Assembly (NCBI GenBank): GCA_035453125.1
Contig: DAOTCN010000002.1
Location: forward strand, 289,993-353,992
DNA from: Minisyncoccota bacterium
GTDB lineage: Archaea; Nanobdellota; Nanobdellia; Pacearchaeales; GW2011-AR1
Length of the DNA stretch: 64,000 bases
Direction of reading: 5' to 3'
Positions 22,634-42,992 of this stretch are shown here, piece by piece (positions within the stretch are counted from its first letter, which is position 1; every line of letters starts with the position of its first letter). Made by a program: the position numbers and the translations under genes. The notes below the pieces were generated by a model. It worked only from the letters and a program-made list of their open reading frames with translations. It was not told where the DNA came from and did not search any database.

Positions 22634-22652
22634 ACAAAACCTTTGTAAAAAA

Positions 22653-23414: not shown

Positions 23415-23440
23415 GTTATCAAAAACGAGCAAGCTATAAA

Positions 23441-23800: not shown

Positions 23801-23833
23801 TGAACAATTAAATTTATCAATCAAAAAGAAAAA

Positions 23834-24169
23834 ATGCCATCAAAAGAACACGAACAAAAAATAGAAGAAATTGATAGAGAAATAAAATCAAGAGGAATGC
23901 ACTGGAAGACTAAAAAGAATTATCCTATTTGGTTACATAAAGAGAATAGTTGGGGTCAAATTGATCTTGTAGGATTTAAGAGGGAAGAACCAATGTCTCC
24001 TGCAATGATTGATGCTTTTGAGATAGAAGAACGAAACTCTGCTGGACAAATCTCTAGAAACTTAGAAAAATTAGAGCAAATTAAAAAAATGACTCCTATA
24101 AATATTAAAGTTCGTACATGTCAATTAAAGTCTAATGAAGATCATAAAAAGGTGTGTATAAGAAAATGA
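23834..24169 (+). CDS. Hypothetical protein (possible PD-(D/E)xK-like nuclease fold)
   Basis: GQIDLVGF ... IDAFEIEE pattern only; weak. Confidence 0.3.
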   Translation: MPSKEHEQKIEEIDREIKSRGMHWKTKKNYPIWLHKENSWGQIDLVGFKREEPMSPAMIDAFEIEERNSAGQISRNLEKLEQIKKMTPINIKVRTCQLKSNEDHKKVCIRK

Positions 24170-24684
24170 AAGTTGTAATATATCTAAGAGTTAGTACAAT
24201 AGACCAAACAACACTGAATCAAGAATTAGAATTGAAATCCTATTGTGAAAGAAACAATTATGAAATTTTTAAGGTCTACAAAGATGAAGGAGTATCTGGA
24301 TCAAAAACATCAAGACCACAATTAGATTTAATGTTGCAAGATATGAGGAATAAGCTCTTTGATGCAGTTATTGTTTGGAAATTTGATAGATTAGGAAGAA
24401 GCACTTCTCATTTATTACAAGTTTTGGAAGAGATGAAAAATAAAGGAGTTAGATTAATAGCAACCTCTCAAAATATTGATACAGAAACTCCCATGGGTAA
24501 ATTCTTTTTTACTATACTTTCAGGTTTTGCAGAGATGGAAAGAGAAATGATTAAGGAAAGAATATTGCTTGGATTAAAGAGAAGAAAGCAACAAGGAAAA
24601 AGTCTTGGAAGACCAAACGGAGCTAAAGATAAAGGAAGACGGAAAAAAGGTGGTTATTATTTAAGATATAAAAAGAGTAAATAA
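24166..24684 (+). CDS. Small serine recombinase (resolvase/invertase catalytic domain; no canonical C-terminal HTH)
   Basis: VVIYLRVSTIDQ (catalytic Ser), GVSGSKTSRPQLDLML and VVWKFDRLGRS. The C-terminus is only a short basic tail, GRRKKGGYYLRYKKSK. ATGA overlap with the upstream ORF. Confidence 0.8.
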   Translation: MKVVIYLRVSTIDQTTLNQELELKSYCERNNYEIFKVYKDEGVSGSKTSRPQLDLMLQDMRNKLFDAVIVWKFDRLGRSTSHLLQVLEEMKNKGVRLIATSQNIDTETPMGKFFFTILSGFAEMEREMIKERILLGLKRRKQQGKSLGRPNGAKDKGRRKKGGYYLRYKKSK

Positions 24685-24686
24685 AA

Positions 24687-27504: not shown

Positions 27505-27505
27505 T

Positions 27506-29854
27506 TTAAGCTACCAATAATCTTCTCTTTACCTCAATAAGAGCTTTCGTTGCAACCATTATTTTTGCAAGTGCTTTAACTCCGCCTGCTTTTTTTATCT
27601 CATTAATTTCAAAGATATTAGGATTTTCAAGTTCTTCAATTCCATTTTCTTTAAATTGTTTTGCTAATGCACCAACAACTTTAGATGTATCCGAAGGCAA
27701 AGACATTAACCAATTTTTATTTTTATAATTAAAAGCAAATACTCTTTCATCTCTTGTTTTTGGGTCAACTCCAAAGCCAACATTAGCTAAAAAATCAAAT
27801 AAATCACAATCATCAAGATTCAATAATTGTCTAAGCATCAATGCACCTTTTTCTCCACCAGGTAATACTTCAATTAGATGAACTCTTTCTTTAGGACTAA
27901 CCCACATCTCACGAAGTAAATCTATATTTTCAACTTTCAAAACCAAACTCTCAGCGAGCTTCCTTCTATATTCTTCAATAGTAACTGACTTTTCTTTTTT
28001 TGTATCTTCATCTCTCATTAAAATAAATGTTCCTTCATCTTTAATCTTAACTTCATAACCATAAACTTTAGCAATCTTTTGTTTTTCCTTATCTACACCA
28101 GGTTTAGACGGATTATCTCTTGGCTTTGAGATAAATTCTTTTCCAAATAAACGAGTAGCATTGGTGTAATCATAAATTCTAAACATGTACTTATCAAAAG
28201 ATTCGTCAATTCGTGTTCCTCTTCCGATCATTTGATAAAATGTTATTGGAGATGCAACATAAGCAAAGAAAACAACATTTTGTATACAAGGAATATCTAC
28301 ACCAGTAGAAAGTAAATCAACTGTAGTTGCAATAAAATGAGAATTTTTCATAGCCCTCATATTTGCTATTAATGCTTCATGGTTTTCATCAAAATCTGCC
28401 TCAAATGTTTTTGCAGTAAACTTAAATGCAAACTTTTCACAATTAGATAATTTTTTATCTTTATACAGATTATTTAATTCATTTGCAACATCTTCAGCAT
28501 GTTTATCATTTGCACAAAAGATTATTGTTTTTTGTTTTAATCCACCAGTCTTTTCAAATTGTTCCATTAAGTCCTTACACATAGCCTTTCTTCTTTCTGG
28601 CAAAATAATCTTTTTATCAAAACTCTCTTTAGCATAAATTTCTTTAAGGTCTTTTTCTGTAAGTTTCTTTCCTGTTTTTGCATCTGTAACTCCTTTCGCA
28701 AGAAGTTCATCTTTACTAAGCCATACTTCATCAATACATGCTTTTCTTCTAACAATTTCACAAGCAGCTAGATAACCATCTTCCCAGCCTTGAATGTAAG
28801 GATATTCGTAAACAGGTTCTCCAAAATATTTTAAATTATTAGCACTTATTTCTTCATCTCTATTCTTTGCATCTGATTTTTCTCCAACAATCTTCCTTGG
28901 AGTTGCAGTAAGTCCAATCTGAACAGCATCAGGATTATTTGTTAAAACAACACTCCACTTATTCCATGCACTTCTATGACATTCATCAATGATAATATGA
29001 CTAAATTCATTCTTTCGGTAATTATTCAAAAAGAAAGATTCGTCTCCTTCTTCATCTAAACCTAAAGACTGATAGGTAGCAACAACGATTCTCGCATTTT
29101 TTTGAGGATTATTTTTTGAAACCATTGCAGCATTATCTCCGAATATAGAAAACATACTTCCATATCCCTGCCTTTTCAATTCATTTCTATCACAAACAAA
29201 TAGGGCTTTTCTTAATTGTCCAGATTTTTCAAGTTTATGTAAAAGTTGAACTGCAATTCTGGTTTTTCCTGAACCTGTTGCAAGAGATAATAAAGCTCGG
29301 TTCCAACCTTTTTTTTGAGAAGCAATCTTTTCAAGAACCGCTCTTATTGCTGCATCTTGATAATATCTTCTTTCAGATTGTCCTCCTTGATATGGAATGA
29401 ATAAAGATTTGGAATAATCACTATCTAAAGAAAACCCTTTGCCTTTTTCATATAATTTTTTTAATTTCTCAGGTGTAGGAAAATTTTCAAGAGGTAATTC
29501 TTCTGTAATCTTACCAATAAATGAGTCATAGGCAACAAATAAATGTCCATTAGTAGCGAATACAAAAGGAACATTTAATCTCTTAGCATATTCTTTTGCT
29601 TGGTCTAAACCTAGTGTAGCATGTTCATCTTCTTTTTTTGCTTCAAGAATTGCAAGTGATAAGGGAGTATCTTCTTCATTAGAAGGGTAACATAAAACAT
29701 AATCAGTTCTTCCACCTTTTCTCTTAGTTCTGCCATTTATAATTTCAATTGTTCCAGCAGTTGTTTCTCTTCTGATTAAATCTTCATTCCATCCTACATT
29801 GTGTATCTTTGGGTCTATTAATTTTGCCCTGGTATCTGCTTCATTAAATGCCAT
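27506..29854 (-). CDS. hsdR: Type I restriction enzyme, R (helicase-nuclease) subunit, EcoEI-like C-terminus
   Basis: N-terminal EADTRAKLIDPKI, helicase motifs LATGSGKT, IIDECHR and LTATP, QMIGRGTR. Confidence 0.9.
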   Translation of the reverse strand: MAFNEADTRAKLIDPKIHNVGWNEDLIRRETTAGTIEIINGRTKRKGGRTDYVLCYPSNEEDTPLSLAILEAKKEDEHATLGLDQAKEYAKRLNVPFVFATNGHLFVAYDSFIGKITEELPLENFPTPEKLKKLYEKGKGFSLDSDYSKSLFIPYQGGQSERRYYQDAAIRAVLEKIASQKKGWNRALLSLATGSGKTRIAVQLLHKLEKSGQLRKALFVCDRNELKRQGYGSMFSIFGDNAAMVSKNNPQKNARIVVATYQSLGLDEEGDESFFLNNYRKNEFSHIIIDECHRSAWNKWSVVLTNNPDAVQIGLTATPRKIVGEKSDAKNRDEEISANNLKYFGEPVYEYPYIQGWEDGYLAACEIVRRKACIDEVWLSKDELLAKGVTDAKTGKKLTEKDLKEIYAKESFDKKIILPERRKAMCKDLMEQFEKTGGLKQKTIIFCANDKHAEDVANELNNLYKDKKLSNCEKFAFKFTAKTFEADFDENHEALIANMRAMKNSHFIATTVDLLSTGVDIPCIQNVVFFAYVASPITFYQMIGRGTRIDESFDKYMFRIYDYTNATRLFGKEFISKPRDNPSKPGVDKEKQKIAKVYGYEVKIKDEGTFILMRDEDTKKEKSVTIEEYRRKLAESLVLKVENIDLLREMWVSPKERVHLIEVLPGGEKGALMLRQLLNLDDCDLFDFLANVGFGVDPKTRDERVFAFNYKNKNWLMSLPSDTSKVVGALAKQFKENGIEELENPNIFEINEIKKAGGVKALAKIMVATKALIEVKRRLLVA

Positions 29855-29942
29855 ACAAAATAAAATACCCCCTTCCTTTTAACCCTTTCCAAATAAACTA
29901 CCCCCCTAAAAATATTATTATATTACCCTAGAAAACTCAAAA

Positions 29943-29964
29943 CAAATAAACAGATGTTTATTTG
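29943..29964. repeat. 9-bp-stem hairpin in the hsdR/secreted-gene divergent intergenic region
   Basis: caaataaac-agat-gtttatttg. Confidence 0.6.
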
Positions 29965-29987
29965 CAAATAATTAAGGGTTTTAGTTT

Positions 29988-30026
29988 TGTTAAAAAATAT
30001 GTTAAAACTTTTGTTAAAAAGTTAAT
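29988..30026. promoter_or_regulatory. Iteron-like direct repeats (TGTTAAAA x3 at 12-bp period, plus GTTAAT)
   Basis: tgttaaaa at 29988, 30000 and 30012; gttaat at 30021. Function not established. Confidence 0.3.
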
Positions 30027-30164
30027 GCTTTGGTTTGTAAGTTGTTGAAGGATTAAGTTTTTATTTATTTTGAGTAATTAAAATAAAACATATTGTATAA
30101 TACCATAATTCTTTAAAAAGTGTCATTAATAGGTAATTCTAGTTATAAGAGTGATAGGATATGG

Positions 30165-31724
30165 ATGCAAAGAAAAAATTGGTTATGTTTGATGTTAGTA
30201 TTCTTGGTTAGTTTTTCTTATATTTCTTTGGTTAATGGTGCAGTAATTTTTCAAGATGATTTTGAATACGGATTAGGAAATTGGGAAACTTTTAATGCTT
30301 CTCTTCCTAATAGTGATGTTGGGTTAACAGATTCTACACCACCAAACTTTGGATGGCCTTTTTCAGTTAACTCTCCTTCATGTCCTGGAAGTTTTAGTGC
30401 ATGTAATGGTCCTAACAATCATTATGTTTATTTTCATAGAAACGGAGATAATACTCCTTGGTTATATATGAATTTTTCAACAAAAGGTTATACAAATGTT
30501 AAGATTAAATATTTAGAACAAACACATATTAATTTTATGCCCTTTGGTTCTGATTTAGAGTGTCTTGACAGTCCTCTTTTAATGTATAGATTTGGGAATA
30601 ATGAGTCTTGGAGAGTGTTTTTAGGCTCGGAGATAATTCTAACAAGTTGTGTAATTCCCGGCCTTAATGACTTTGCATGGAAACAAATTGGACCTTATTG
30701 GAGTCCTCTAGATGAAATAGGTAATCATGATGAAGTTCAACTTGCTTTTAAATTTTCTTCTAATGACGGTGGACTTTTAGATAGTGGAGATGATTTTTTT
30801 ATTGATGATTTTCAATTATTGGGTGATCCAATAAGTTGTTCATTAAATTCAGATTGTGGAACTAATGGATATGTTGGAAACTCATTTTGCTCAACTAAAA
30901 ATGTTGTTAGAAATTATACTTCATTTACTTGTAATAATCCCGGAACTGAAGGTTCTTATTGCTCTAATTCTGTATCACAACAAATTATATCTATATGTTC
31001 TGATTATTGTTTGAGTGGTGCTTGTGGAACATTTATTTGTCATAATAATTCAGAATGTAATGATAACAATTCTTCAACTGAAGATATTTGTATAAATCCT
31101 AATACTTTGAGTTCCTTTTGCCAACATAATGTTGCATCAATAATAAACTGTTCTGTAAATACTGACTGTGGTGTTAATGGATTTAGTAGTTCTCTTTTTT
31201 GTATAGGAAATAACATAAAACAAAATTATACTTCATTTACTTGTAATAATCCTGGAACTACAAATTCTTATTGTTCTAATTCTACAAGTGTAAACCAAAA
31301 TAATACTTGTGCAGATACTTGTTCAAATGGGCAGTGTTTTTCATTTATTTGTCATAATAATTCAGAATGTAATGATAACAATTCTTCAACTGAAGATATT
31401 TGTATAAATCCTAATACTATTAATTCAATTTGTGCCCACAATATTATACCTCCTTGTCAAGATGATGATGGAGATAGTGTTTGTAACATAAATGATTTAT
31501 GCCCAAATACTCCTTCAAATGAAGATGTTGATTTAGTTGGTTGTTCTTTAATGCAATTTTGTGAAAAACAGCCTATTTGTGGTATAGGTTGTAATTTAGC
31601 GGACTGGAAAAACAATGAACAAAGTGCTCTTAATCCTCATGATTGTATAACTGTTCTTGTTGCAAAAGAAGGAAAGTATTATCCAAAATGTGCTTCGTAT
31701 GTTGGAGCAACTTGTGGAAATTAA
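30165..31724 (+). CDS. Secreted Cys-rich protein: N-terminal beta-sandwich (MAM/lectin-like) domain, duplicated 104-aa Cys-rich module, TSP3-like Asp-rich segment
   Basis: Signal peptide MQRKNWLCLMLVFLVSFSYISLVNG. The internal duplication is visible at DNA level (31030-31106 = 31342-31418). Asp-rich segment CQDDDGDSVCNINDLCPNTPSNEDVD. Confidence 0.6.
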   Translation: MQRKNWLCLMLVFLVSFSYISLVNGAVIFQDDFEYGLGNWETFNASLPNSDVGLTDSTPPNFGWPFSVNSPSCPGSFSACNGPNNHYVYFHRNGDNTPWLYMNFSTKGYTNVKIKYLEQTHINFMPFGSDLECLDSPLLMYRFGNNESWRVFLGSEIILTSCVIPGLNDFAWKQIGPYWSPLDEIGNHDEVQLAFKFSSNDGGLLDSGDDFFIDDFQLLGDPISCSLNSDCGTNGYVGNSFCSTKNVVRNYTSFTCNNPGTEGSYCSNSVSQQIISICSDYCLSGACGTFICHNNSECNDNNSSTEDICINPNTLSSFCQHNVASIINCSVNTDCGVNGFSSSLFCIGNNIKQNYTSFTCNNPGTTNSYCSNSTSVNQNNTCADTCSNGQCFSFICHNNSECNDNNSSTEDICINPNTINSICAHNIIPPCQDDDGDSVCNINDLCPNTPSNEDVDLVGCSLMQFCEKQPICGIGCNLADWKNNEQSALNPHDCITVLVAKEGKYYPKCASYVGATCGN

Positions 31725-31872
31725 ACCTGTTCACAAATTGTTATTCATTCTTTTAGTTAAAAAAACATAGTAAACCTTGTGTTTAGAATTTACCCAATTT
31801 AGAAACATTCTTATACATTTGATGGGTATAATCTAATATGGTAAAAGACAATGAAAGAAAGAGTATAATAAA

Positions 31873-32499
31873 ATGAAAAAGAGTATTAAGATAATTATTA
31901 TTACAATAGTAGTAATTAGTTTGTTATTGTTAGTTGGTTTCATTATTATGAATAATCAATTTGCCTATAATAATTCAATCATTAGTATAAAAATAGGAAA
32001 TGAAACAATAGCAACTAATATTAATATAATTTCGTTAGGAGAAATAAAGATTGCCTACTGTAATACTAATCAAGATAGTTATGAATGTTTTTTTGAAGGT
32101 GTTGTTAAAGTTACTCCAAAAGTAAGTAAAAAGTTTGCAGAAATAACTTCACAACTTGAAGTAGATTATCAGAATCCTTCATACTTTGATTCAAAAGGAA
32201 ATCCAGTATTTATACTTACTGAACCTCAACTTTATGATTCAGAAGGAAAACCTGTTTATATAACTCCTCAGGTAGATTATAGTAAATACAAAAAAGAATT
32301 TCATTTAAGTGAGGCTTTACATTTCTATTTAGATAATGAACCACTTAGTTCCCAATTCATTCCAGAAAATATGAAGAATACTGAACAAAGTTCTTTTATT
32401 TTTTTTGGGAGTAGTGTTGCAAAAACTAGAGATGAAGCAATTAATTTAATACAAGTAAAAGTGGATAGATTAAAACATATTCATATTGGAGAAGTTTGA
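31873..32499 (+). CDS. Membrane-anchored/secreted hypothetical protein
   Basis: N-terminal TM segment KIIIITIVVISLLLLVGFIIM. Confidence 0.45.
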   Translation: MKKSIKIIIITIVVISLLLLVGFIIMNNQFAYNNSIISIKIGNETIATNINIISLGEIKIAYCNTNQDSYECFFEGVVKVTPKVSKKFAEITSQLEVDYQNPSYFDSKGNPVFILTEPQLYDSEGKPVYITPQVDYSKYKKEFHLSEALHFYLDNEPLSSQFIPENMKNTEQSSFIFFGSSVAKTRDEAINLIQVKVDRLKHIHIGEV

Positions 32500-32511
32500 T
32501 ATTAAATTAAA

Positions 32512-32904
32512 ATGAAACAAAAAAATAATACTCTTATGTTACCTATTTTTATTGTTCTTATTGTTATTGCTCTTGCTTTATGTTTGCTTGTAGTAAATAA
32601 CTTATTCTTGGCAAGAAGTACACAAATCACTGCACAAATAATCAATACTGAAAAGCCAGAATGTGGAGATGCTGTTGCAGAATGTTATCTTAGCTGTTTA
32701 AAAAAATTAACAATCAATTCAGCAAAAGAATGCATTGCAAAAAAATGTAGGGAAGAACAAATCAAATATTGTTCTATTCAAGATGCCCTAAATTCAAGGT
32801 TTATGAATACAAAAATGTGTGAAAGGTCGTGTAGTCCTGAATGTAAATATGATTGTTTAGATAATAAAAATGAATTAACTTGCCTTAGGAATTGTGTCGT
32901 ATAA
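32512..32904 (+). CDS. Small membrane-anchored Cys-rich protein
   Basis: TM segment LPIFIVLIVIALALCLLVV followed by 12 Cys in about 85 aa. Confidence 0.45.
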   Translation: MKQKNNTLMLPIFIVLIVIALALCLLVVNNLFLARSTQITAQIINTEKPECGDAVAECYLSCLKKLTINSAKECIAKKCREEQIKYCSIQDALNSRFMNTKMCERSCSPECKYDCLDNKNELTCLRNCVV

Positions 32905-32908
32905 TAAG

Positions 32909-33175
32909 ATGAACACTAAAATAATCCTTATGGTTTTTATTGCACTTCTCTTAGTCTTTGACACAATAGCATTAAGCGTGGTAGCTCTACAAGTAAAACC
33001 AACACTAACCACAACCCAAACAACCACACAACCTATTCAAGAAACATTATCTACAAGTCAACAGAAGGTCAAGATTGTGCAGGAAACGAGTGAGGAAGTC
33101 TTAGAACCTACTAAAGAAAAACTAAGTGATACAGCTGTTGTAACCTTAAGTGTTAATGTTCTAAAAAGGAAGTAG
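32909..33175 (+). CDS. Small membrane-anchored Thr/Gln-rich protein
   Basis: MNTKIILMVFIALLLVF TM segment followed by a TTTQTTTQP linker. ATG 32909 is preferred over GTG 32894. Confidence 0.4.
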   Translation: MNTKIILMVFIALLLVFDTIALSVVALQVKPTLTTTQTTTQPIQETLSTSQQKVKIVQETSEEVLEPTKEKLSDTAVVTLSVNVLKRK

Positions 33176-33213
33176 TGCTATACATTTAAATAAAAGTTAA
33201 GACTTATGCTTTT

Positions 33214-34104
33214 ATGAAAAGTGGGTTGATAGTATTAGTTTTAGGTGTGTTCTTAATGGTTTTTATGATTGGAAGTGTGAGTGCAAATTATTGTTTTGAT
33301 GAAAAAGAAAATGAAGTACATTTTCATGGTACAATTCCAAATATAGTTAGTAATAATCTTAATATTCAAAGCATTTCTACCATTACTGTGTGTAACAGAA
33401 ACCTTAACTTAATATTTATTCCAACTTTTTCTGAATATATAAGTGCAAAGAGTTCTAGTAATCATGAAATTTATTTAAATCATGATTTACAAATTGACTA
33501 TAATGGAAAATATTTCAGAGGTTACTTTACAGGATTTTCATCATATAGACAAATGAATAATTTAGATGAATATTTTATAAGAATTTATCCTGTTTTGTAT
33601 AGTTATGATAACGTCACATGGTATAGTATTGAAGAAAGTTATGATAAAATTGAAGGATATATTAACATTATTCTTTATGTAAATAGTTCTTCTAATGAAA
33701 TAATAATGGGTAATTCTAGAATTGAGGATTTTATAACAGTTATTAAGGGGAATAATCAAGAACAGCGTCTCACAGCACTTGAATCATTTCAACAAACACT
33801 TAACAATACAATAACCTCCTTTCAAACAACTATCACAACAATTCTAACAACATTAAACACACTTACAACAAAAGTAGATAATCAAGAAACAAGATTAACA
33901 GCTCTTGAAAATAAACCAATTCCAACAGATAATTCAATTATACCTAATTACTTCAAATATCTAAGTCAAACTGATAGGAAATCAATGTTATGTGGTTATG
34001 CAGAAGATAGTCATTTAACAACTATTACAGACCTTGGAATGAATTGTAATTTAACTTATACTCCTTACTCAAGAGGAGAAAGGGTTTCTTGTAAGTGTAA
34101 GTAA
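33214..34104 (+). CDS. Secreted protein with a coiled-coil stalk (repeated QE(Q/T)RLTALE motif) and a Cys-containing C-terminus; possible spike/fibre-like protein
   Basis: Signal LIVLVLGVFLMVFMIGSVSA. NQEQRLTALESFQQTLNNTITSFQTTITTILTTLNTLTTKVDNQETRLTALENK. It is the last gene before attR. Confidence 0.45.
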   Translation: MKSGLIVLVLGVFLMVFMIGSVSANYCFDEKENEVHFHGTIPNIVSNNLNIQSISTITVCNRNLNLIFIPTFSEYISAKSSSNHEIYLNHDLQIDYNGKYFRGYFTGFSSYRQMNNLDEYFIRIYPVLYSYDNVTWYSIEESYDKIEGYINIILYVNSSSNEIIMGNSRIEDFITVIKGNNQEQRLTALESFQQTLNNTITSFQTTITTILTTLNTLTTKVDNQETRLTALENKPIPTDNSIIPNYFKYLSQTDRKSMLCGYAEDSHLTTITDLGMNCNLTYTPYSRGERVSCKCK

Positions 34105-34156
34105 AATTAGTTTTTGTTTTAGATAATATTCCTCTTTCTGTGTTTTTCTAACCTTC

Positions 34157-34177
34157 TTCAAATCTCGGTCCGGGCGT
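34157..34177 (+). repeat. attR core (21/21 copy of the tRNA-Asp 3' end)
   Basis: ttcaaatctcggtccgggcgt is identical to 18021-18041. Confidence 0.85.
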
Positions 34178-34182
34178 AATTT

Positions 34183-34199
34183 TCTTATCGACGATAAGA
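34183..34199. repeat. Perfect palindrome tcttatcg-a-cgataaga immediately after attR
   Basis: 8-bp arms read directly from the sequence. Confidence 0.8.
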
Positions 34200-34212
34200 G
34201 TTTTGTGATTTT

Positions 34213-34254
34213 TCCGGGCGTTGAACCATATTTTTTGTTGTTTTAGTTCAACGC
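34213..34254. repeat. Second att-core remnant (tccgggcgtt, 10/10) overlapping a 9-bp-stem hairpin (gcgttgaac / gttcaacgc)
   Basis: 34213-34222 matches 18033-18042. The stems lie at 34218-34226 and 34246-34254. Confidence 0.6.
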
Positions 34255-34271
34255 TGGGGTTGGGAGTTAAA

Positions 34272-35021
34272 CTATCTTTTTGCTATTTTCCAAAGAACTT
34301 CAAAATACTTTTTAAATGAATCAAAAACAGGCTTACTTTCAATTAAAATAGCTAAAGGATTGGTTGGTTCTAAGATAAAGATAAGAACTTTATTAGTATA
34401 TATCTCTGTGCTTGTTGGCATTTCCATCTCTTTTGGTAAAAACCTAAATTCAGTATGAGCTAAATGCTTTCTTTTTTTATAAAGAGAAATATACTTTTCA
34501 TTTAATAAATGCTTATGTACAATTCCTTTTTTTGCTCTTTCTTCATGTTTTTTATTAAAATAAACTTCCCAAGATTCTGGTTGTTCTGTCAAACCCATTG
34601 AGAGCCATTCTTCCCCTCTTTTTAAGCTATTAAGAATATCATCCTCTACTGTTTTCAATCCTTCCCAACCAGTATAGATTTTAACTTCAGACTTTGGAGC
34701 TTGTTTTTGTTTTAAAATAAGTTGTGGAATTATTTTAATTATATCTTTTTTTTCATAATCTATTTGCTGTTTTTTTTCATCTAGATAATTAAGTATTCTT
34801 TCAGGACTTGCTGCTTCAAAGTATTTAACATTATTCTTAATTGTTAAATTAACTAAACCTTTGTCTATTAATCTATTAAGAACTTCATATACTTTTGAGC
34901 CAGATATTTTAGATTTTTTAGTTATATTCCATGTTGTTGAGGAACCTAATTCCAGCAAAGCAAAATATATTTTGATTTCCCCATCTGTTAAGCCAATAGT
35001 CTTTAATGTTTGGTTTATCAT
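34272..35021 (-). CDS. TrmB-family transcriptional regulator
   Basis: N-terminal LKTIGLTDGEIKIYFALLELGSSTTWNITKKSKISGSKVYEVLNRLIDKGLV and a C-terminal effector-like domain. Confidence 0.75.
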   Translation of the reverse strand: MINQTLKTIGLTDGEIKIYFALLELGSSTTWNITKKSKISGSKVYEVLNRLIDKGLVNLTIKNNVKYFEAASPERILNYLDEKKQQIDYEKKDIIKIIPQLILKQKQAPKSEVKIYTGWEGLKTVEDDILNSLKRGEEWLSMGLTEQPESWEVYFNKKHEERAKKGIVHKHLLNEKYISLYKKRKHLAHTEFRFLPKEMEMPTSTEIYTNKVLIFILEPTNPLAILIESKPVFDSFKKYFEVLWKIAKR

Positions 35022-35064
35022 ATCGTATAAGGGGGGGAATAATGTTTATAAACATTTAGTTTTA

Positions 35065-35517
35065 ATGGCTTTTATGACAAGAGAAGAAAATGAAACCATA
35101 AAAGAAGAATACTCGCTTAGAGGACAACCAGTGATAAATCTATTTAATCATAATTGGAATCCTGAAGTAGATGGTAAGCTTAAAGCATTTGTAAGATTAG
35201 GGTATGACTCTTTCTCAAAAGACCCTTTTTTCTTTCCAAATTTAGCAAGTTTTGATTCTTTACATCTTGTAAAAGAACGGTCGGAATCTTGTGGTAGATA
35301 CGGAAGTGGAACATATGGAAATGACACAGACTTAGTCTTATGTGGGGGTTCATTAGTATACATTAGTTATGATAGTATTAATCCAGATTTTAACATTCCC
35401 ATAGAAAATTCAACATGTAGAATACTTCTTTTTGCTGAAAATGGTTCTAATGCAGTAATTACGAGAGGAAGATTAGAGGAAATTTGTGGGCAAAGTTTAG
35501 AAACGAGGAAAAAATAA
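35065..35517 (+). CDS. Hypothetical protein (150 aa), first gene of a coupled pair
   Basis: ATG 35065 was chosen because the track ORF start at 34861 runs antisense through the TrmB gene. No recognisable motif. Confidence 0.45.
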   Translation: MAFMTREENETIKEEYSLRGQPVINLFNHNWNPEVDGKLKAFVRLGYDSFSKDPFFFPNLASFDSLHLVKERSESCGRYGSGTYGNDTDLVLCGGSLVYISYDSINPDFNIPIENSTCRILLFAENGSNAVITRGRLEEICGQSLETRKK

Positions 35518-36117
35518 ATGACAATACCAACAAGTGAATGGAAAACAATTGGAAGACCTGGATGGTTTGGAGAAGATAGAGACAGAGTCCTTGCTGAATA
35601 TGATAAAAAATATGGAAAAGGAAATTGGAGAATAAGACATAAATTAGGACCAAGAACTTTAGATTTTAATCAAGCAGTGCAACTTTATGAATTATCTTAT
35701 GAATTAGATTTTAATCATCCTGACAGAAGATATATTTGGAATGATTTAATAAAAAGAGCAAGAGATGTTTGGACAGAACAATTAACAGATATAGACTCTG
35801 GAACTGACTACTCTATTCAGTTAGCTCCTGCTGCACATTATGAAGATATTGCTATAAGAAGAATTTTAGATAAATATGGTTTAAAATTTGAAGGACAAGA
35901 ATTAGTTAGAATAAGGGCAGATAGTGAAGATTTAGCAGGAAAAGTACTAAGTTCAATACATATTCCTTTTATTTATCCAGATTATATTGAGGGTTCATTG
36001 GATGATTCAATGCCTTGGTGGGACAGACATAAAGGTTCTTTAGAGTGTTTTTGGCATTTAAATAAAATTTTACAAGTAAGACCAGTATATAATGAACATT
36101 TTAATAATCGGTTTTAA
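35518..36117 (+). CDS. Hypothetical protein (199 aa, W/R/D-rich), translationally coupled to the upstream ORF
   Basis: The ATG directly abuts the upstream TAA (35515-35517). No recognisable motif. Confidence 0.5.
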   Translation: MTIPTSEWKTIGRPGWFGEDRDRVLAEYDKKYGKGNWRIRHKLGPRTLDFNQAVQLYELSYELDFNHPDRRYIWNDLIKRARDVWTEQLTDIDSGTDYSIQLAPAAHYEDIAIRRILDKYGLKFEGQELVRIRADSEDLAGKVLSSIHIPFIYPDYIEGSLDDSMPWWDRHKGSLECFWHLNKILQVRPVYNEHFNNRF

Positions 36118-36122
36118 AATAA

Positions 36123-36461
36123 TTATTTTTTTCTTTTAAGTCTAAGCTTTCTTCTAATGTCTTCTTCTTTTTCAAGATTTGCTCTATAACCCCTAATAGG
36201 TTTAGTATCATAACTTGTTGGATGAGGATAATTACTTATTCTAACTTCTTGAACTAATTGAGTATCAACCCAATTTTCAATTAATTCATAAACCTCGTTA
36301 GAAGAGTAAATACATCCAAAACACTTATCTCTAGGAGTTCCAGCCGATATAGCTGAAGGATGATAATAAATCTCTGGATTTTCTTTAGTTAAATCATATA
36401 CGGTTCTTAGTATTGCAATCCTTGCTTCTCTAAATACTGTACCATTATGTTTTCTTTTCAT
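36123..36461 (-). CDS. Hypothetical protein (112 aa) with a basic C-terminal tail
   Basis: ATG 36459-36461 lies 1 nt after the upstream stop. The track's TTG start at 36482 was rejected. Confidence 0.4.
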   Translation of the reverse strand: MKRKHNGTVFREARIAILRTVYDLTKENPEIYYHPSAISAGTPRDKCFGCIYSSNEVYELIENWVDTQLVQEVRISNYPHPTSYDTKPIRGYRANLEKEEDIRRKLRLKRKK

Positions 36462-36462
36462 T

Positions 36463-36807
36463 TTAATGCTCTCCAAATTCAACTTTTATTGGAGGAGTTA
36501 TTCTATATAAAACTACTTCGGATGGGTCTGTAATCGGAAATAGCTGAGCCTGTTCCATTGCCCTAAATTTGTCCCATTGTTCTGAACTCCAGTGAGGATA
36601 AGCTCTATATTCTAAAATAGTTGATTTAGGTGTTTGATGTACATTTAATAAGTGAAAGTTTGGTGTATCTTTTAAATAATATTCTTTGAGGTCATCAAGT
36701 CCACACTTTGTGACAGATTTCCATCTAGTTAAACATCTAGGTAGGATGCCCTCTCTTTTTGATTCAACCATATAAGGCATAGTTTGAATGTCTGTTATTC
36801 TTTCCAT
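36463..36807 (-). CDS. Hypothetical protein (114 aa)
   Basis: ORF only; first gene of the minus-strand pair. Confidence 0.4.
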   Translation of the reverse strand: MERITDIQTMPYMVESKREGILPRCLTRWKSVTKCGLDDLKEYYLKDTPNFHLLNVHQTPKSTILEYRAYPHWSSEQWDKFRAMEQAQLFPITDPSEVVLYRITPPIKVEFGEH

Positions 36808-36906
36808 TTTAATCTTGTTCTTTACATTTATAGCTGTTATTTTGTATATACCTCGCTTTTTAAGCTTTTCTATTTATTGTAACTTAGAAGTAGTTAACTT
36901 ATAATA

Positions 36907-36972
36907 CTTTTTACCACACGAGGAAATTGTCTATAAGTTAAACCTAAGGTTTAACTAACGGTCCGGGCGTTC
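36907..36972 (+). repeat. Left copy of a long direct repeat (ctttttaccaca..aggaaattgt..gttaaacc-taa-ggtttaac-taa + att core cggtccgggcgttc)
   Basis: Aligns with 38540-38627. Contains an 8-bp-stem hairpin and a 14/14 match to 18030-18043. Confidence 0.8.
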
Positions 36973-37150
36973 TTGATATTGAACTTGGTGAAATATCAAT
37001 ATATTCTGGATTTTTGATTTGAACGAGGAGAGTTCAAATACTTCAATTCATTGTTTTTAGAATTAAAGTTACCAAAAATCTGCAGGATTTTTTAGTACTC
37101 AGTCCGGGCGTATTACCCTCTACTTTTTAAATAGTAAATGTAAAGGGTAA
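36973..37150. repeat. Cluster of hairpins and further tRNA-Asp 3'-end fragments
   Basis: ttgatatt/aatatcaa (36973-36999). atttgaac/gttcaaat (37017-37039), which includes gagttcaaat = 18018-18027. gtccgggcgt at 37102-37111 = 18032-18041. ttaccct/agggtaa (37113-37150). Confidence 0.65.
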
Positions 37151-37165
37151 GATTTATAAAGATGT

Positions 37166-37197
37166 ATAAATTATACAGAATTAGGATAAATTATACA
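37166..37197 (+). promoter_or_regulatory. Candidate operator: 12-bp direct repeat ataaattataca x2, 20 bp apart, upstream of the AbiEi-like gene
   Basis: 37166-37177 and 37186-37197 are identical; the second ends 17 nt before the ATG at 37215. Confidence 0.35.
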
Positions 37198-37214
37198 CTA
37201 TTTTATAGGTAAAT

Positions 37215-37760
37215 ATGAAAAAAGCAAAAAAAACACAAATAGCTAAAAGGATAAGAAAATTTAAAGGAATTTCTCCTGCTGAAGTAGAAGTAATCTCTTG
37301 GCTTGAATTTTATCAAAAATATTTCTTTACTTCTGAAGATATAATGCAGTTCTTTAGCAGTAAAAATACTCTTTATAGAGGGATACAAAAAATGCTGGCA
37401 AAAAAAAGAATAATTAAACTTAATCAAAATAAATATTATCTTATCCCAATAAAAGCTAAGTCTGGTGGTTGGGTAGAAGAGGATTTTATAGTTATAGATG
37501 AAGTATGCAATTCAGAAGAATACTATATTGGGGGTTGGGCAGCAGTTAATTATTGGAGATTTACAGATCAAATACCTTTTTGGTGTGATGTTTATACAAC
37601 AAATAAACGAGGTAGAAGAAAAATATTAAATGTAGGGATTATATTCCATCAAGTTAGAAAAATTGATAAATCCAAATATGTTATAGAAAAAATTAAGGGG
37701 CATGAATTTAAAATACTGAATAAGAGGGAATCAAAAAAATGGATGAAATCAAGGCAATAA
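37215..37760 (+). CDS. AbiEi-like antitoxin / wHTH transcriptional regulator (type IV TA)
   Basis: N-terminal wHTH-like region. It sits immediately upstream of the AbiEii-like nucleotidyltransferase and overlaps it by 22 nt. Confidence 0.6.
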   Translation: MKKAKKTQIAKRIRKFKGISPAEVEVISWLEFYQKYFFTSEDIMQFFSSKNTLYRGIQKMLAKKRIIKLNQNKYYLIPIKAKSGGWVEEDFIVIDEVCNSEEYYIGGWAAVNYWRFTDQIPFWCDVYTTNKRGRRKILNVGIIFHQVRKIDKSKYVIEKIKGHEFKILNKRESKKWMKSRQ

Positions 37761-38518
37761 GCGAATTAGACTTTAATGATATTGTTGCAAGAACAGGATT
37801 TAATAAAGATAAATTAAGAAAGGATTATTATCTTACTTTAATTTTATACTTGATTAGAGATATAGATAGCATTTATTTTAAAGGTGGAACTGCTTTAAAT
37901 AAAATATTCTTGAATTATGCAAGATTATCTGAGGATTTGGACTTTTCCTTAACAAGAAATGAAAAAGAAATAAAACATGAAATATCAAATATTTTAACTG
38001 ATTTACCCTTTGTTAAAGATATTACAGAAGGTAAAAATGTAGATGGTTTCTTAAGAATGATAATAAAATGTAAGTCTGAAATAGGAGAAAGTGAAATATT
38101 TATAGATTTAAATCAAAGAGCTAAGCTTCTACGAAAACCAGAAAGTTATGAAATTAAACATTTTTATGAACCATTTATACCAAAATTTTCCATAAAAACT
38201 ATTGCAAAAGAAGAGCTAATTGCTGAAAAGGTTGCAGCCACAATAAGAAGAAATAAACCAAGAGACCATTATGATGTTTACAAAATTATTCATCAAAGTA
38301 TTTCAATAAATCTAGAACTTGTAAAAAAGAAATGTCATGAATCAGGAGATGACTTTTCAATTCTTAAAATGTTCAATAAAGCAAAAATGCTGAAGAATAG
38401 ATGGGATAAAGATATTACCTCACTTATTGCAGAACCAGTTTCATTTAAAGAAGTCATGCAATTATTAGCAAAACACTTTAAATTAAACGAAGAGAAAGAA
38501 AAGAGTAAAAATAAGTAA
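37739..38518 (+). CDS. AbiEii/AbiGii-family nucleotidyltransferase toxin (DUF1814)
   Basis: Family signature FKGGTALNKIFLNYARLSEDLDFS. The size (259 aa) and gene pairing fit this family. Confidence 0.8.
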   Translation: MDEIKAISELDFNDIVARTGFNKDKLRKDYYLTLILYLIRDIDSIYFKGGTALNKIFLNYARLSEDLDFSLTRNEKEIKHEISNILTDLPFVKDITEGKNVDGFLRMIIKCKSEIGESEIFIDLNQRAKLLRKPESYEIKHFYEPFIPKFSIKTIAKEELIAEKVAATIRRNKPRDHYDVYKIIHQSISINLELVKKKCHESGDDFSILKMFNKAKMLKNRWDKDITSLIAEPVSFKEVMQLLAKHFKLNEEKEKSKNK

Positions 38519-38739: not shown

Positions 38740-39843
38740 TTAATTTTTTATAAATGTTTTATTTTTTGTTTCAGTTATTGAATTTATTTTATCAAGAATC
38801 TGAGGGTTTAGATAGTGGTGAATTGTTACATTGTAATTATCTTTCCATTCATTATCTTTTTTTGAAAAACGTTTGTGTCCGAGTTTTTCAGCTATTTCTG
38901 TAAAAAGTTCTTTAACTTCTTGTTTTGTTGCTTTTTTGTTTTTATGATTTTTTAGAAATTCTTCAGAAGTTTTTGTTGCATAAAATGAACGAACTATATG
39001 TGGGTAAAATTTTTCTCCACAATATTTTTCAAAAGCATTCATGAAGCTAGTATCTTTTAGAGGTTTTTTGTTTTCGTCTGTGAAAATAAAGTCAGAATTT
39101 TTTAGTGATTTTATTTTTTCATTCAATCTTTTTATGTAATCTTTTGGAAATTCTTCAGTTATCTTCATAGGAACACCGTCTTTTGCTTTGTAATCAAAAG
39201 TTACTTGATTACCTTTTATTGAAATATCGCTTTTTTTTAGTGTTGTTAAACCTTTGTGACCATCAGCTTTATAATATATTTCATTACCAACCCTCATGTA
39301 TGTTTTTAATAAAGTATACATAGGAATAGCCATTGAATCTTGTTTGTTTTTTATTGAGTTTAGAACATTTTTGTTAAGTATTGAATATTTTTTCTCAAAA
39401 TTTTCAACTTTTTTGAACTTATTTCTTATTGCTTTTTTCTTATCTTTTAAAGAATATAAATAAGCATATTTTCCATTAGGGTTCTGATATATAACATCCC
39501 AATGATTATCTGAACTTTCACTATGAACTGTTAAATTATTTGCAAAAATAGAATATGCTTTATCTAAAATATCTCCATTAGGAAGTATATTGATTCTTGC
39601 ACCTCTTATTTTTCCATCAGGCAATAAAAAACCTTTTAAGAATCTTGAATCTTTTAAATCAATTAATTGATTGAATTGATTATGTGCTTTGAATAATTTT
39701 ATAACTTCGAAAGCATTTGTAAATTTTTTATTTGATATTTTCCAAGAATTTTTTGTTTTTTCGTAAATATTAAGATCTTTTCCAATTCTAATTGTTTTTA
39801 CAGGTATTTCAAGCTGTTTTTTTGAGTTTTTTTCTTTCATCAC
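38740..39843 (-). CDS. topIB: DNA topoisomerase IB
   Basis: TopIB core blocks YMRVGNEIYYKADGHKGLTTLKK, VTFDYKAKDGVPMKI and YPHIVRSFYATKT, and a C-terminal NVTIHHYLNP carrying the candidate catalytic Tyr. Confidence 0.75.
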   Translation of the reverse strand: MMKEKNSKKQLEIPVKTIRIGKDLNIYEKTKNSWKISNKKFTNAFEVIKLFKAHNQFNQLIDLKDSRFLKGFLLPDGKIRGARINILPNGDILDKAYSIFANNLTVHSESSDNHWDVIYQNPNGKYAYLYSLKDKKKAIRNKFKKVENFEKKYSILNKNVLNSIKNKQDSMAIPMYTLLKTYMRVGNEIYYKADGHKGLTTLKKSDISIKGNQVTFDYKAKDGVPMKITEEFPKDYIKRLNEKIKSLKNSDFIFTDENKKPLKDTSFMNAFEKYCGEKFYPHIVRSFYATKTSEEFLKNHKNKKATKQEVKELFTEIAEKLGHKRFSKKDNEWKDNYNVTIHHYLNPQILDKINSITETKNKTFIKN

Positions 39844-39962
39844 TTCTATAAGCTATAATGATTCTTGGAGTATTTAAATTATAATAAATCTTAAATAAGA
39901 TAGAATATTTTTAAATATATACTTTGTTAGTAATTTAATCATATTGAAAAAGTAAGGTGAAA

Positions 39963-41042
39963 ATGGAAAAAAAGGAGAAACAAACAAAAATTTTTAGTAC
40001 AAATATTGAAAGAGCAATTGAAGAAAAAACAACTAAAGAAGAATTTTTTAATATTTTAAGGTTTGTTGCACCAGGAACTAATTTAAGGGCTGCTCTTAAT
40101 GGGATTGTTGATGCTAAAAAAGGAGCTTTGATTCTTGTTGAAAACGAGTTTACTAATGATATACTTGATGGGGGTTTTAAGATAAATTGTAAGTTTACTC
40201 CACAGAAACTAATAGAGCTTTCTAAAATGGATGGAGGAATAATTCTTTCACATGATATGAAAAGAATTGTTTATGCTAATGTTATGCTTGTTCCAGATGT
40301 TAGAATTCCAACAAAAGAAACAGGTACTAGGCATAAAGCTGCTGAAAGAAGCGCAAAAATGACTGGAACTCTTGCTATTGCTATATCTGAACGAAAGAAT
40401 CAAATTAACATTTATTATAAAGATTTAAAGTACCATCTTCATGATACAGCTGAAATTTTAAGAAGGGCTACTGAAACATTACAAATACTTGAGAAACATA
40501 GAGAATTATTTGATATTAATGTTGATAAATTAAATAAAATGGAAATTAGTAATGATCTTAGTATTAAACAAGCTGCAAAAGTAATTCAAAAAGGAAGAAC
40601 AATGCAGAAAATTTTAGAGTCACAAGAAAAAACTTTTGTTGAATTAGGAAATGAAGCTTCAACTTTAAAATTAAGAGTTAGAGAGATAATGAAAGATGTT
40701 GAAAAAGAAACTGATTTGGTGATAAGAGATTATACAATTCTTAGTTTAAAAAAATCAAAATCAATTATTGATAATATGTCTCATGAAGAGTTATTTGATT
40801 TAGACAAAATCATTACTGCTTTAGCACAAAAAAATAATGTACATCTAGATTCTTTGAAGGGCTGGAGAATATTATCTAAGACTTGTTTAAATGAAAAAGA
40901 AGTTGCAGAAGTTCTTAATTATCTTGGAAGTTTTAAAGATGTTTTAAATAGTAATCAGTCAAAATATCAAAAAATAATTGGTGAAGAGAAAGCTAAATTT
41001 TTTAATAAAGAAATTCAAACATTTTTGAATGCTCATCGTTAG
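39963..41042 (+). CDS. disA: DisA-type diadenylate cyclase (DAC domain + helical linker + C-terminal HhH-like domain)
   Basis: GALILVEN, LSKMDGGIILS, YANVMLVPDVRIPTKETGTRHKAAERSAKMTG and LAIAISERKNQINIYY are near-collinear with bacterial DisA. 360 aa. Confidence 0.8.
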   Translation: MEKKEKQTKIFSTNIERAIEEKTTKEEFFNILRFVAPGTNLRAALNGIVDAKKGALILVENEFTNDILDGGFKINCKFTPQKLIELSKMDGGIILSHDMKRIVYANVMLVPDVRIPTKETGTRHKAAERSAKMTGTLAIAISERKNQINIYYKDLKYHLHDTAEILRRATETLQILEKHRELFDINVDKLNKMEISNDLSIKQAAKVIQKGRTMQKILESQEKTFVELGNEASTLKLRVREIMKDVEKETDLVIRDYTILSLKKSKSIIDNMSHEELFDLDKIITALAQKNNVHLDSLKGWRILSKTCLNEKEVAEVLNYLGSFKDVLNSNQSKYQKIIGEEKAKFFNKEIQTFLNAHR

Positions 41043-41672: not shown

Positions 41673-42992
41673 TTAAATTAACTCACTTTTTTCTGTTTTA
41701 ATTGATGTAGGTGTTTCTCCACCATGCCAAGTAAACCTTGGTCTTATTCTTAAAGGATATATTCTTTCAGAATTATCATCTAGTATAATTGCTGAACCCT
41801 TTAAGCGAGGTAATTCATCAATATATTGTTTTATACTTCCAAATAAATAGGTTTGCATTATTTCATTTAATGCAGTTATGTCTGGTAAAGAGGTTAATCT
41901 GTGAGATATTACAATGTCTGATTGAGTCATTACATCTTTATGTATCTGTCCTGGTTGTTGTGTTGCTAAAACAAGAGATATTCCGGGTTGTCTTCCTTCT
42001 CTTAATATTTGTATAAGGCTGTCTGTAGCTAATGTTTGACCTTCTTTTGGTAAAAATTCGTGGGCCTCATCTATAAATATCCATACTAAAGGAACTTCTC
42101 TTGATTGATCAAATGAGAGATAGTCTATTCCATGTCTTAATGAATCAATTTCTTCTTTTTTTCTTGCATCTGTTCTTTCATTAAATATTTTTTTACAAAC
42201 AAGACCTATGACAAGTGCTCTTATATTGAATGCACCTATTGAATTATAAGTACTAAGATCAATTATAGTACTAACTCCAGGTGTTAATAAATCCTGCATT
42301 TTTGTTTCTTTTTGATTTTTATTTGCAAATATCCCCCAAGTTTTTGCACCTTCAAATAAGCTTATTAAAGCATTTTTATTGTCTTGAGTCGATGTTTTAT
42401 CTTCAAATATTCTTTTAATTATTTCGTCTATATCAAATAGCTCTTTATTTTCATTAATCGAATAAATAACTTTTTCTAATAATATAGCTATGGGATCTGT
42501 TATTTTTAAATTAAAAATTAATATCCAATCTTCAGAAGTTAATTCAGACACTTTTATCGCAAAAGGTTCATCTACAGCTACTCCTTTTTCTAAATATTCA
42601 TTAAAATAACCAAATGGTGCAAAAACTTTTATCGGTACTTTTTTAGGTTTTAGATTCCATTCTTCCAATAATCTTTTTTCTTTTTCGTTTTCGTATTTCA
42701 TTGTCCAAAAAATACCCATAGTATCAAATATAACTGGAGATATATTTTTGCTTACTTCTTCAGGTAACATTGAGATTTCTTCTGCTATTGCTCCAAGAGT
42801 ATATGATTTTCCAGAACCCCTTTTTCCTGCAACTAAAATAACATGACTTCTAGATACATCAAGATATATTGGATTTGACAAAGAAGTATATTGACCCATT
42901 TTTACATAACCTTTACCAATTTTTACTAGTCCTTTCTCACCGAACTTTTTTTTATCTGAATCATCTCTTCCAATTATTATATTATAAGGCAT
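41673..42992 (-). CDS. HerA/FtsK-like (DUF87) P-loop ATPase
   Basis: Walker A VAGKRGSGKSYTLG, Walker B WIFIDEAHEF, ATQQPGQI. N-terminal barrel-like region. Confidence 0.7.
   Translation of the reverse strand: MPYNIIIGRDDSDKKKFGEKGLVKIGKGYVKMGQYTSLSNPIYLDVSRSHVILVAGKRGSGKSYTLGAIAEEISMLPEEVSKNISPVIFDTMGIFWTMKYENEKEKRLLEEWNLKPKKVPIKVFAPFGYFNEYLEKGVAVDEPFAIKVSELTSEDWILIFNLKITDPIAILLEKVIYSINENKELFDIDEIIKRIFEDKTSTQDNKNALISLFEGAKTWGIFANKNQKETKMQDLLTPGVSTIIDLSTYNSIGAFNIRALVIGLVCKKIFNERTDARKKEEIDSLRHGIDYLSFDQSREVPLVWIFIDEAHEFLPKEGQTLATDSLIQILREGRQPGISLVLATQQPGQIHKDVMTQSDIVISHRLTSLPDITALNEIMQTYLFGSIKQYIDELPRLKGSAIILDDNSERIYPLRIRPRFTWHGGETPTSIKTEKSELI

Follow-up and report, generated by a model that had tools for sequence, protein, structure and literature searches.

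A short TrmB-family regulator with an unnamed enzyme-like protein family, and an ORFan gene pair, among att remnants at a DPANN tRNA-Asp gene

Introduction

TrmB-family regulators are classically sugar-responsive. The described members, such as Pyrococcus furiosus TrmB (PDB 3QPH), TrmBL1 and TrmBL2, have an N-terminal winged helix, then a helical linker and a sugar-binding effector domain, ~340 residues in all, and their genes are divergent from their presumed target genes. Here we analysed five genes, one of which encodes such a regulator, at 34272-36807 of a 64,000-nucleotide stretch of contig DAOTCN010000002.1 (the whole stretch is referred to as the window; GC ~27-28%). Proteins closely related to those of the window are found in metagenome-assembled genomes of Nanoarchaeota, Pacearchaeota and Woesearchaeota, which places its source among the DPANN archaea. 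The regulator gene is divergent from two genes, A and B, and a second pair, D followed by C, converges on B. The original prediction had described the five as an orphan island between remnants of attachment (att) sites, forming one candidate accessory or defence system. Compared with the TrmB family, the window regulator shares the winged helix, full-length to PF01978, the linker and the divergent orientation, whereas it differs in its length of 249 residues, in having no detectable sugar-binding effector domain, and in its neighbours, which are not sugar transporters or glycolytic genes.

Gene B invites comparison with NAD-salvage enzymes. In NadM-Nudix and NadR, nicotinamide mononucleotide adenylyltransferase (NMNAT) is fused to an ADP-ribose pyrophosphatase or a kinase, and the fusions found in the B family resemble this arrangement, which we take as a lead: distant relatives of B are joined, in either order, to NMNAT/NadD-type cytidylyltransferase-like domains, one relative carries NUDIX, and some carry a PfkB kinase. 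B itself, however, resembles neither Nudix nor P-loop kinases in sequence or fold, and in the window it stands alone with no NAD-salvage gene adjacent. A second parallel is offered by the RNA-repair and NAD neighbourhoods of large phages (RtcB, Ro60/TROVE, CCA-adding enzymes, SAK-type HAD, PARP), since viral relatives of B adjoin RtcB or WGR-PARP genes; these relatives are only 28-38% identical to B, though, and neither the five-gene stretch nor the scanned genes of the window included such a partner.

Our preferred reading, with a probability of about 0.55, is that two unrelated units lie in a tRNA-Asp-remnant segment. The first (34272-36117) would be a regulator-plus-operon module, in which a short TrmB is divergent from a 29-nt block made up of a CGTAT element, a G-run and a TATA box. 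The TrmB-like protein would bind this conserved block and gate a leaderless A-B transcript, and its C-terminal half may sense a small molecule related to the substrate of B and so control the operon. B, the predicted functional core, would be an alpha/beta domain of ~190 residues with enzyme-like features, from a large family that has no name. It would act on a substrate derived from nucleotides, with an NAD/ADP-ribose-related metabolite or an RNA-end group as the most likely candidates. A would be accessory and may bind a ligand or partner B. The second unit (36123-36807), presumed to be functionally unrelated to the first, would consist of D and then C expressed from their own promoter, and would be the ORFan cargo of an integrative element that has decayed. 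A role for C as a small DNA-binding protein is probable, and a toxin-antitoxin (TA)-like role of the pair is possible.

Results and discussion

Structure and composition of the five genes

The five open reading frames (ORFs) and their junctions were recovered as originally placed. The TAA of A (35515-35517) abuts the ATG of B (35518) with zero gap, which suggests that A and B are translationally coupled, and between the stop of D and the ATG of C there is a single nucleotide. For A, the ATG at 35074 is more likely to be the start than that at 35065, on the basis of the form held in the public collection, the homologue alignment, and a TATA-to-ATG spacing equal to that in another locus (L032). 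With this start the gap between TrmB and A measures 52 nt, and the 43 bp given before holds only if A starts at 35065.

Coding signal was present throughout. The codon-usage log-odds, trained on the other window genes, were positive for all five ORFs in the annotated frame only, and purifying selection was found for TrmB, A and B. Stop-free runs of at least 110 codons numbered 72 in the real window vs a mean of ~1 per shuffled window. The codon usage of the five ORFs was within or near the host range, and GC at the third codon position (GC3) was 0.172 for TrmB, 0.182 for A, 0.120 for B, 0.115 for C and 0.226 for D, the window mean being 0.158 (standard deviation 0.031). The slightly raised GC of these genes comes from codon positions 1 and 2, i.e. 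from amino-acid composition, so the less AT-biased codons described earlier were not borne out, and with host-like GC3 and codon usage the composition gives no sign of recent foreign origin. What survives of the proposed foreign origin is the location: an accessory or foreign one is plausible, since the segment lies between tRNA-derived att remnants in a hotspot, beside restriction-modification (R-M) and AbiE genes.

The four proteins A-D were as unrecognisable as first thought. None matched a model in Pfam, PADLOC, PHROGs or NCBIfam, and the profile libraries placed none of them in a known housekeeping family. Elsewhere in the window there was no paralogue of any of the five genes. The description as orphans fits C and D, and does not fit TrmB, A and B, which have homologues.

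Gene B and its family

B was strongly constrained, with a proportion of nonsynonymous differences (pN) of 0.08 vs 0.58-0.65 for synonymous ones (pS) and a ratio of the corresponding rates (dN/dS) of ~0.08. Among the matches listed, 36 close cluster-level homologues showed 36-89% identity, and all came from DPANN archaea or Patescibacteria. Scanning one genome per species (185,579 species) gave 19 loci, which were DPANN or candidate phyla radiation (CPR) except for two metagenome-assembled genomes (MAGs) labelled Methanosarcinales; between DPANN archaea and CPR bacteria the identity of B was 55-64%. An exhaustive profile search of 1.84 billion representatives showed a much wider family, with 448 clusters at E<=1e-3 and 167 at E<=1e-30 (clusters defined at 50% identity), ranging over DPANN, CPR, other bacteria and large viral contigs. 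Among the best 150 relatives, 148 were newly listed proteins, of which 59 were stand-alone (<=230 aa) and 89 longer, up to 4150 aa.

The AlphaFold2 model of B (37 sequences; predicted local distance difference test score (pLDDT) 91.6, predicted template-modelling score (pTM) 0.87) was confident and showed an alpha/beta domain. Foldseek comparison of the model with PDB and BFVD gave no fold match, the best hits (E 1.3 and 0.86, respectively; template-modelling score (TM)<=0.22 overall and <=0.21 in PDB) being noise, and neither the B profile nor a broad B profile found a solved relative among PDB sequences. The family has no Pfam, NCBIfam or PHROG model, and no description of it was found in the literature. 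Across the broad family, W37, E58, Y61, Q101, H107, D110, R114, G126 and E176 are among the residues that vary little or not at all, an enzyme-like pattern.

The partners of B-family domains were then taken from 66 multi-domain relatives, in which Pfam recognised CTP_transf_like eight times, PfkB three times, and PTH2 and Ham1 twice each, with HD_3/YfbR-like, dCMP deaminase, NUDIX and DprA as single cases, and also a methyltransferase. One of the CTP_transf_like fusions is named nicotinate-nucleotide adenylyltransferase by its source. In a 4150-aa protein of Candidatus Omnitrophota (P0110) the B domain is followed by HAD, cytidylate kinase, APH and HD domains. As a separate observation, giant multi-domain proteins (P0110, P0072, P0122, P0129) have the B domain set among domains of these four kinds, and several proteins of ~2000 aa carried no other Pfam domain.

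Gene neighbours pointed in the same direction. In an archaeal MAG (L028, 1820-3308) an ADP-ribosylglycohydrolase gene (1.1e-35) overlaps the start of B. Relatives of B with 28-38% identity are carried by nine IMG/VR contigs of 48-442 kb, and within 4 kb of these viral relatives we found RtcB, Ro60/TROVE, SAK-type HAD, PARP/WGR and CCA-type nucleotidyltransferase genes. Directly upstream of the B relative, and translationally coupled to it or overlapping it, lie RtcB on a 209-kb viral contig (L039, 4817-6564) and WGR-PARP on a 133-kb one (L046, 4606-6537), while in L044 a metallophosphoesterase follows directly downstream. Taken together, the fusions and neighbours suggest that B functions in nucleotide, NAD/ADP-ribose or RNA-end metabolism and not in immunity.

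A more specific proposal is that B is an enzyme of a sugar-nucleotide pathway, e.g. an analogue of heptose-bisphosphate phosphatase, with HldE-like fusions and a sugar-sensing TrmB. Four relatives (P0085, P0089, P0090, P0100) do have the B domain between PfkB and CTP_transf_like, and the general sugar-responsiveness of TrmB-family regulators would suit such a role. We consider it unlikely, because most of the other partners are nucleotide, NAD or RNA enzymes (Ham1, NUDIX, deaminase, CMP kinase, RtcB, PARP, ADP-ribosylglycohydrolase) and because the window regulator is without the TrmB sugar-binding domain.

The main interest of the locus is thus B itself, a large, unnamed and structurally unmatched enzyme-like family common to DPANN, CPR and large phages. 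Ultra-small symbionts rely on nucleotide and cofactor salvage, and B could fill a gap in their salvage metabolism or RNA repair; if it does, the family members of jumbo phages would be auxiliary genes.

A short TrmB-family regulator and a conserved intergenic block

By its DNA-binding domain, the regulator is classed as a member of the TrmB family, as the original prediction held. Its N-terminal winged helix matched PF01978 over profile positions 1-68/68 (2.6e-17, 62.8 bits vs a cut-off of 25.6), and the PDB match was to residues 7-107 of P. furiosus TrmB (3QPH; E 1.5e-6), confined to the N-terminal 107 residues. Past residue 74 there was no Pfam match, and the C-terminal sugar/effector-binding domain (TrmB_EBD) was absent. 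The NCBIfam TrmB/TrmBL equivalogs reached only 16-40 bits vs cut-offs of 500-650. A paralogue in L005 carries TrmB_EBD_N. Orthologues with 67-73% identity were present in other DPANN genomes, and selection on the gene was purifying (pN 0.19-0.20 vs pS 0.62-0.66; dN/dS ~0.15).

Upstream of the DPANN TrmB orthologue, a block with the consensus CGTAT-NN-G6-7-(A/G)ATAAT-N-TTTAAATA was conserved in 9/9 aligned loci, whichever gene follows. Its core motif, CGTATNNRGGGGG, occurs once in the window (35024-35036) and once in each DPANN locus with a TrmB orthologue, always at the same position. From this conservation we infer that the block at 35024-35052 is an operator combined with a B recognition element (BRE) and TATA box. 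The putative TATA box (35045-35052) ends 21 nt before the ATG at 35074, a distance that would fit a leaderless transcript. The window alone was without a TrmB-proximal segment of ~45 nt bearing a second TATA-like element, which is present in L001, L005, L015, L018-L020, L032 and L034; the loss of this segment accounts for the short gap between TrmB and A, and the promoter of TrmB may here have been lost or be shared. The short TrmB and the operator-like block offer a directly testable regulator-target pair in organisms in which, to our knowledge, almost no regulation is known.

The TrmB-A-B module in other genomes

Context look-ups and tblastn across all fetched loci covered 45 other loci. The complete arrangement of a 249-aa minus-strand TrmB followed by A and B was found in L001, with identities of 71%, 48% and 89%, respectively. 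In L005, L019 and L020 an unrelated gene stands between TrmB and B; in L015 and L018 B follows TrmB directly; and in L032 and L034 TrmB and A occur without B. The CPR bacterial loci L007, L010, L022, L025 and L027 have B and a TrmB-family gene in divergent orientation. Altogether, 14/22 distinct loci have a TrmB-family gene no more than two genes away from B, and two of the other eight loci are truncated.

A is a lineage-restricted protein of a narrow clade and may be accessory. Only seven clusters were found, all from Pacearchaeota- or Nanoarchaeota-type genomes; homologues with 44-61% identity adjoin the TrmB orthologue in L001, L032 and L034, i.e. wherever context was retrieved, with or without B. 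The protein showed pN below pS (0.24-0.35 vs 0.40-0.71), and its structure model was poor (pLDDT 65). START/Bet-v1-like and Rieske-oxygenase matches of this model in Foldseek were weak (E>=0.03, TM<=0.36) and were not used as evidence.

The surroundings of the module elsewhere are unrelated to one another and mostly housekeeping, with genes for ribosomal L15e and L10/L12, DNA ligase, deoxyhypusine synthase, ABCE1, UvrB, Cys-tRNA synthetase and RuBisCO. No recurrent R-M, Abi or integrase genes were found at the other module loci, so the expected enrichment of A and B homologues beside defence genes was not seen. As side observations, a Nanoarchaeota locus (L012, 1-13053; B 87-88% identical) has several NTP_transf_2/Polbeta genes in its neighbourhood, in some cases beside a small partner gene, together with MazG and Ham1, and B is coupled there to an upstream gene that is not related to A. 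The 188-aa gene upstream of B in L005 had looked NUDIX-like; Pfam did not confirm this, and the assignment was dropped.

These loci bear directly on the idea of a single novel system, defensive or accessory, that comprises all five genes as a regulator with two effector pairs acquired as a unit. The tight packing of the genes between att remnants, flanked by R-M and AbiE, and the membership of A-D in no known family are what this idea would lead one to expect. Synteny has largely refuted it: C and D were absent at every locus with TrmB, A or B (0/45), A and B each occur with TrmB in the absence of the other, the A-B pair is co-conserved in only one other lineage, and the C-D pair nowhere. The contexts elsewhere are housekeeping ones, the partners of the B family are metabolic or belong to RNA repair, and PADLOC-DB returned 0 families for A-D at E<=0.1, with only weak HTH-level matches of TrmB to Csa3/CARF-HTH models. 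Neither for a defence system nor for a single system of five genes was any defining feature found; we give the single-system explanation a very slim chance, and the status of defence candidate does not hold up and should not be carried forward.

The D-C pair

In a 15-billion-protein collection, C and D occurred as singleton clusters only. Both were seen solely on contigs 100% identical to the window, so that there was no variation for dN/dS. No relative of either was found in the 45 other loci, in pattern scans of viral and metagenome contigs or by tblastn of phage records, and the comparison with PDB sequences gave nothing meaningful.

One reading of such singletons is that C and/or D are chance ORFs in decaying element DNA, in line with which D also has the most atypical GC3 of the five. 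The coding scores speak strongly for genes, however: C scored 0.436 and D 0.310, positive in their own frame only (training mean 0.423, standard deviation 0.089), with host-like codon usage. Both ORFs show GC1>GC2>GC3 periodicity, runs of their length are rare in shuffled windows, and the two lie side by side in the same direction and occupy the gap exactly. Chance ORFs are therefore quite improbable.

On the minus strand, the ATG of D is preceded at a distance of 18 nt by a TATA-like CTATAAATG, which may be the promoter of the pair. C has, to judge from its sequence, a helix-rich core with a basic C-terminal tail, in which a winged-helix-like pattern was seen by eye only; this suggests a small DNA-binding protein. 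The simplest account is that D-C is a species-specific operon, the ORFan cargo of a decayed integrative element, possibly in the special form of a TA pair with the toxin first.

In this special case, D-C would be a functional TA or addiction module of the decayed element, independent of TrmB-A-B, with the toxin first and a DNA-binding antitoxin second, as in the type II systems HigBA and MqsRA. The pair shares with these systems the layout of two small, adjacent, co-directional genes (114 + 112 aa, ~113 aa each) with 1-nt spacing in mobile-element DNA. An intact coding signal, a place in a mobile-element remnant beside AbiE, and the basic tail and helix-rich pattern of C would suit it as well. 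Against it, D-C matched no toxin or antitoxin family in Pfam, PADLOC, PHROGs, NCBIfam or PDB sequences, and no homologues were found, hence no co-conservation, whereas TA families are normally widespread. We regard a TA module as rather doubtful.

A bolder version of our reading would combine both units: B would found an undescribed enzyme family, possibly with a new fold, spread over DPANN, CPR, other bacteria and large phages, acting on an NAD/ADP-ribose metabolite or an RNA end and controlled by a short TrmB in ultra-small lineages, while D-C would be a new addiction or TA pair of a decayed tRNA-Asp element. This version is put forward tentatively, as the less probable form.

Points that weigh against two units

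Several results count against the proposal of a TrmB-A-B module around B and separate D-C cargo. The missing ~45-nt promoter segment makes the expression of TrmB in the window uncertain. The conserved block tracks TrmB and not A or B, and B is directly preceded, usually in tight coupling, by genes that are not homologous from one genome to the next; together these suggest that the linkage of TrmB and B in DPANN could partly reflect an inherited neighbourhood and not regulation. The TrmB proteins of CPR bacteria are only 24-33% identical to that of the window. The substrate class of B is assigned through guilt by association, mostly from relatives with only 28-40% identity, and the partners are heterogeneous, including PTH2, a methyltransferase and DprA. 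An ordinary chromosomal module would not account for the position within an att-bounded segment here. Finally, a word-index search with D and C concatenated gave nothing, not even self matches, a weak negative that does not exclude remote homologues of the pair. Both D and C are themselves representatives in the searched collection, so concatenated queries seem unreliable for this kind of search.

The tRNA-Asp hotspot

The features of the locus and its surroundings are listed in Table 1. The last 21 nt of tRNA-Asp (TTCAAATCTCGGTCCGGGCGT, 18021-18041) recur as an exact 21/21 direct repeat at 34157-34177, and given the integrase beside the tRNA gene and this terminal repeat, the sequence between them is identified as an element integrated in tRNA-Asp. 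Its order is integrase, unassigned genes, serine resolvase, type I R-M and several Cys-rich secreted-type ORFs, for which there was no Pfam match. The 9-mer TCCGGGCGT is present in five copies in the window vs 0.21 expected, one of them being the 3' end of tRNA-Asp, and shorter copies of the tRNA 3' end that end in TCCGGGCGT lie at 34213, 36962 and 37103, all in identical orientation. The att remnants named in the original prediction are thus well founded, as are the R-M and AbiE genes on either side of the stretch, and the three further remnants are traces of tandem accretion at the tRNA hotspot.

Table 1. Coordinates of the five genes, the intergenic block and the surrounding features in the window.
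Feature	Position	Strand	Remarks
TrmB-family regulator	34272-35021	-	249 aa
Conserved intergenic block	35024-35052	+	CGTAT-NN-G7-AATAAT-G-TTTATAAA; putative TrmB operator plus BRE/TATA of the plus-strand operon
Gene A	35074-35517	+	147 aa; alternative ATG 35065 gives 150 aa; first gene of A-B operon
Gene B	35518-36117	+	199 aa; conserved core of the module
Gene C	36123-36461	-	112 aa; second gene of D-C operon
Gene D	36463-36807	-	114 aa; first gene of D-C operon
tRNA-Asp (GTC)	17967-18041	+	ARAGORN; integration target and origin of every att-like repeat; sole tRNA in the window
Integrated element, ~16.1 kb	18042-34177		Pfam and perfect 21-nt direct repeat; complete-looking
Tyrosine integrase	18089-19255		directly after tRNA-Asp, within the 16.1-kb element
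Serine resolvase	24154-24684		within the 16.1-kb element; Pfam
Type I R-M hsdM/S/R	24687-29854		full system, within the 16.1-kb element; Pfam
att remnant TCCGGGCGT	34213-34221	+	left edge of the 2.75-kb five-gene segment
att remnant GGTCCGGGCGT	36960-36970	+	right edge of the segment; 17/21 vs tRNA 3' end over 36950-36970
att remnant AGTCCGGGCGT	37101-37111	+	outermost copy; 16/21 vs tRNA 3' end over 37091-37111
AbiEi/AbiEii pair	37215-38518	+	beyond the last att remnant; PADLOC and Pfam

The five genes fill the 2.75-kb interval between the copies at 34213 and 36962, so the segment is bounded by direct repeats of 9-11 nt matching the 3' end of the target tRNA. No recombinase was found in 34222-36961, the integrase and resolvase belonging to the neighbouring 16-kb element, and an Rfam scan of 33900-37400 showed no RNA family. 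Beyond the segment, AbiE was recognised as an antitoxin with a nucleotidyltransferase toxin (AbiEi 8.2e-17 and AbiEii 1.6e-36 in PADLOC; PF08843 1.5e-26 in Pfam), with no link of this pair to the five genes in any other genome examined. The layout is a textbook tRNA-hotspot remnant. Like the nested attR islands formed by tandem accretion at tRNA genes, it has an intact tRNA-Asp, an integrase-bearing element, an exact 21-nt end copy and three shorter co-oriented copies; it differs in that the five-gene segment has no integrase or excisionase of its own, and in that three of its genes form a module that other genomes carry in the chromosome without flanking att sites.

The setting is also the ground for regarding TrmB-A-B as mobile cargo brought in by an integrative element, with its scattered DPANN-CPR distribution due to repeated horizontal transfer. 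Direct TCCGGGCGT repeats 2.75 kb apart flank the segment in the tRNA-Asp accretion zone, B is 55-64% identical between archaea and bacteria and has relatives on viral contigs, and the module shows no conserved wider synteny. At the other loci, however, no integrase, att-like tRNA-derived repeat or tRNA-Asp was found beside the module, the codon usage is fully host-like, and the conservation of the TrmB orthologue, together with the block upstream of it, resembles that of a gene passed on vertically. Mobile cargo is accordingly a possible origin of the module, held with less than even confidence.

Some smaller features of the region were also recorded. A ~200-bp DNA repeat with 83% identity (30911-31106, 31223-31418) lies inside a 534-aa Cys-rich ORF (30120-31724) of the 16.1-kb element, and a public contig (L037) ends ~30 bp into the second copy, at window position 31389. 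Between the att remnants at 36962 and 37103, at ~37015-37040, there is an 8-bp perfect inverted repeat (ATTTGAAC...GTTCAAAT); it includes GAGTTCAAATAC, equal to 11/12 nt of the tRNA-Asp T-arm, and may be a rearranged tRNA fragment. Further on, a eukaryotic-type topoisomerase IB-like gene (PF01028, 1.2e-16; 38740-39843, minus strand) adjoins a DisA-type diadenylate cyclase with DAC and DisA-linker domains (39957-41042, plus strand), and a HerA-like ATPase gene is located at 41673-42992.

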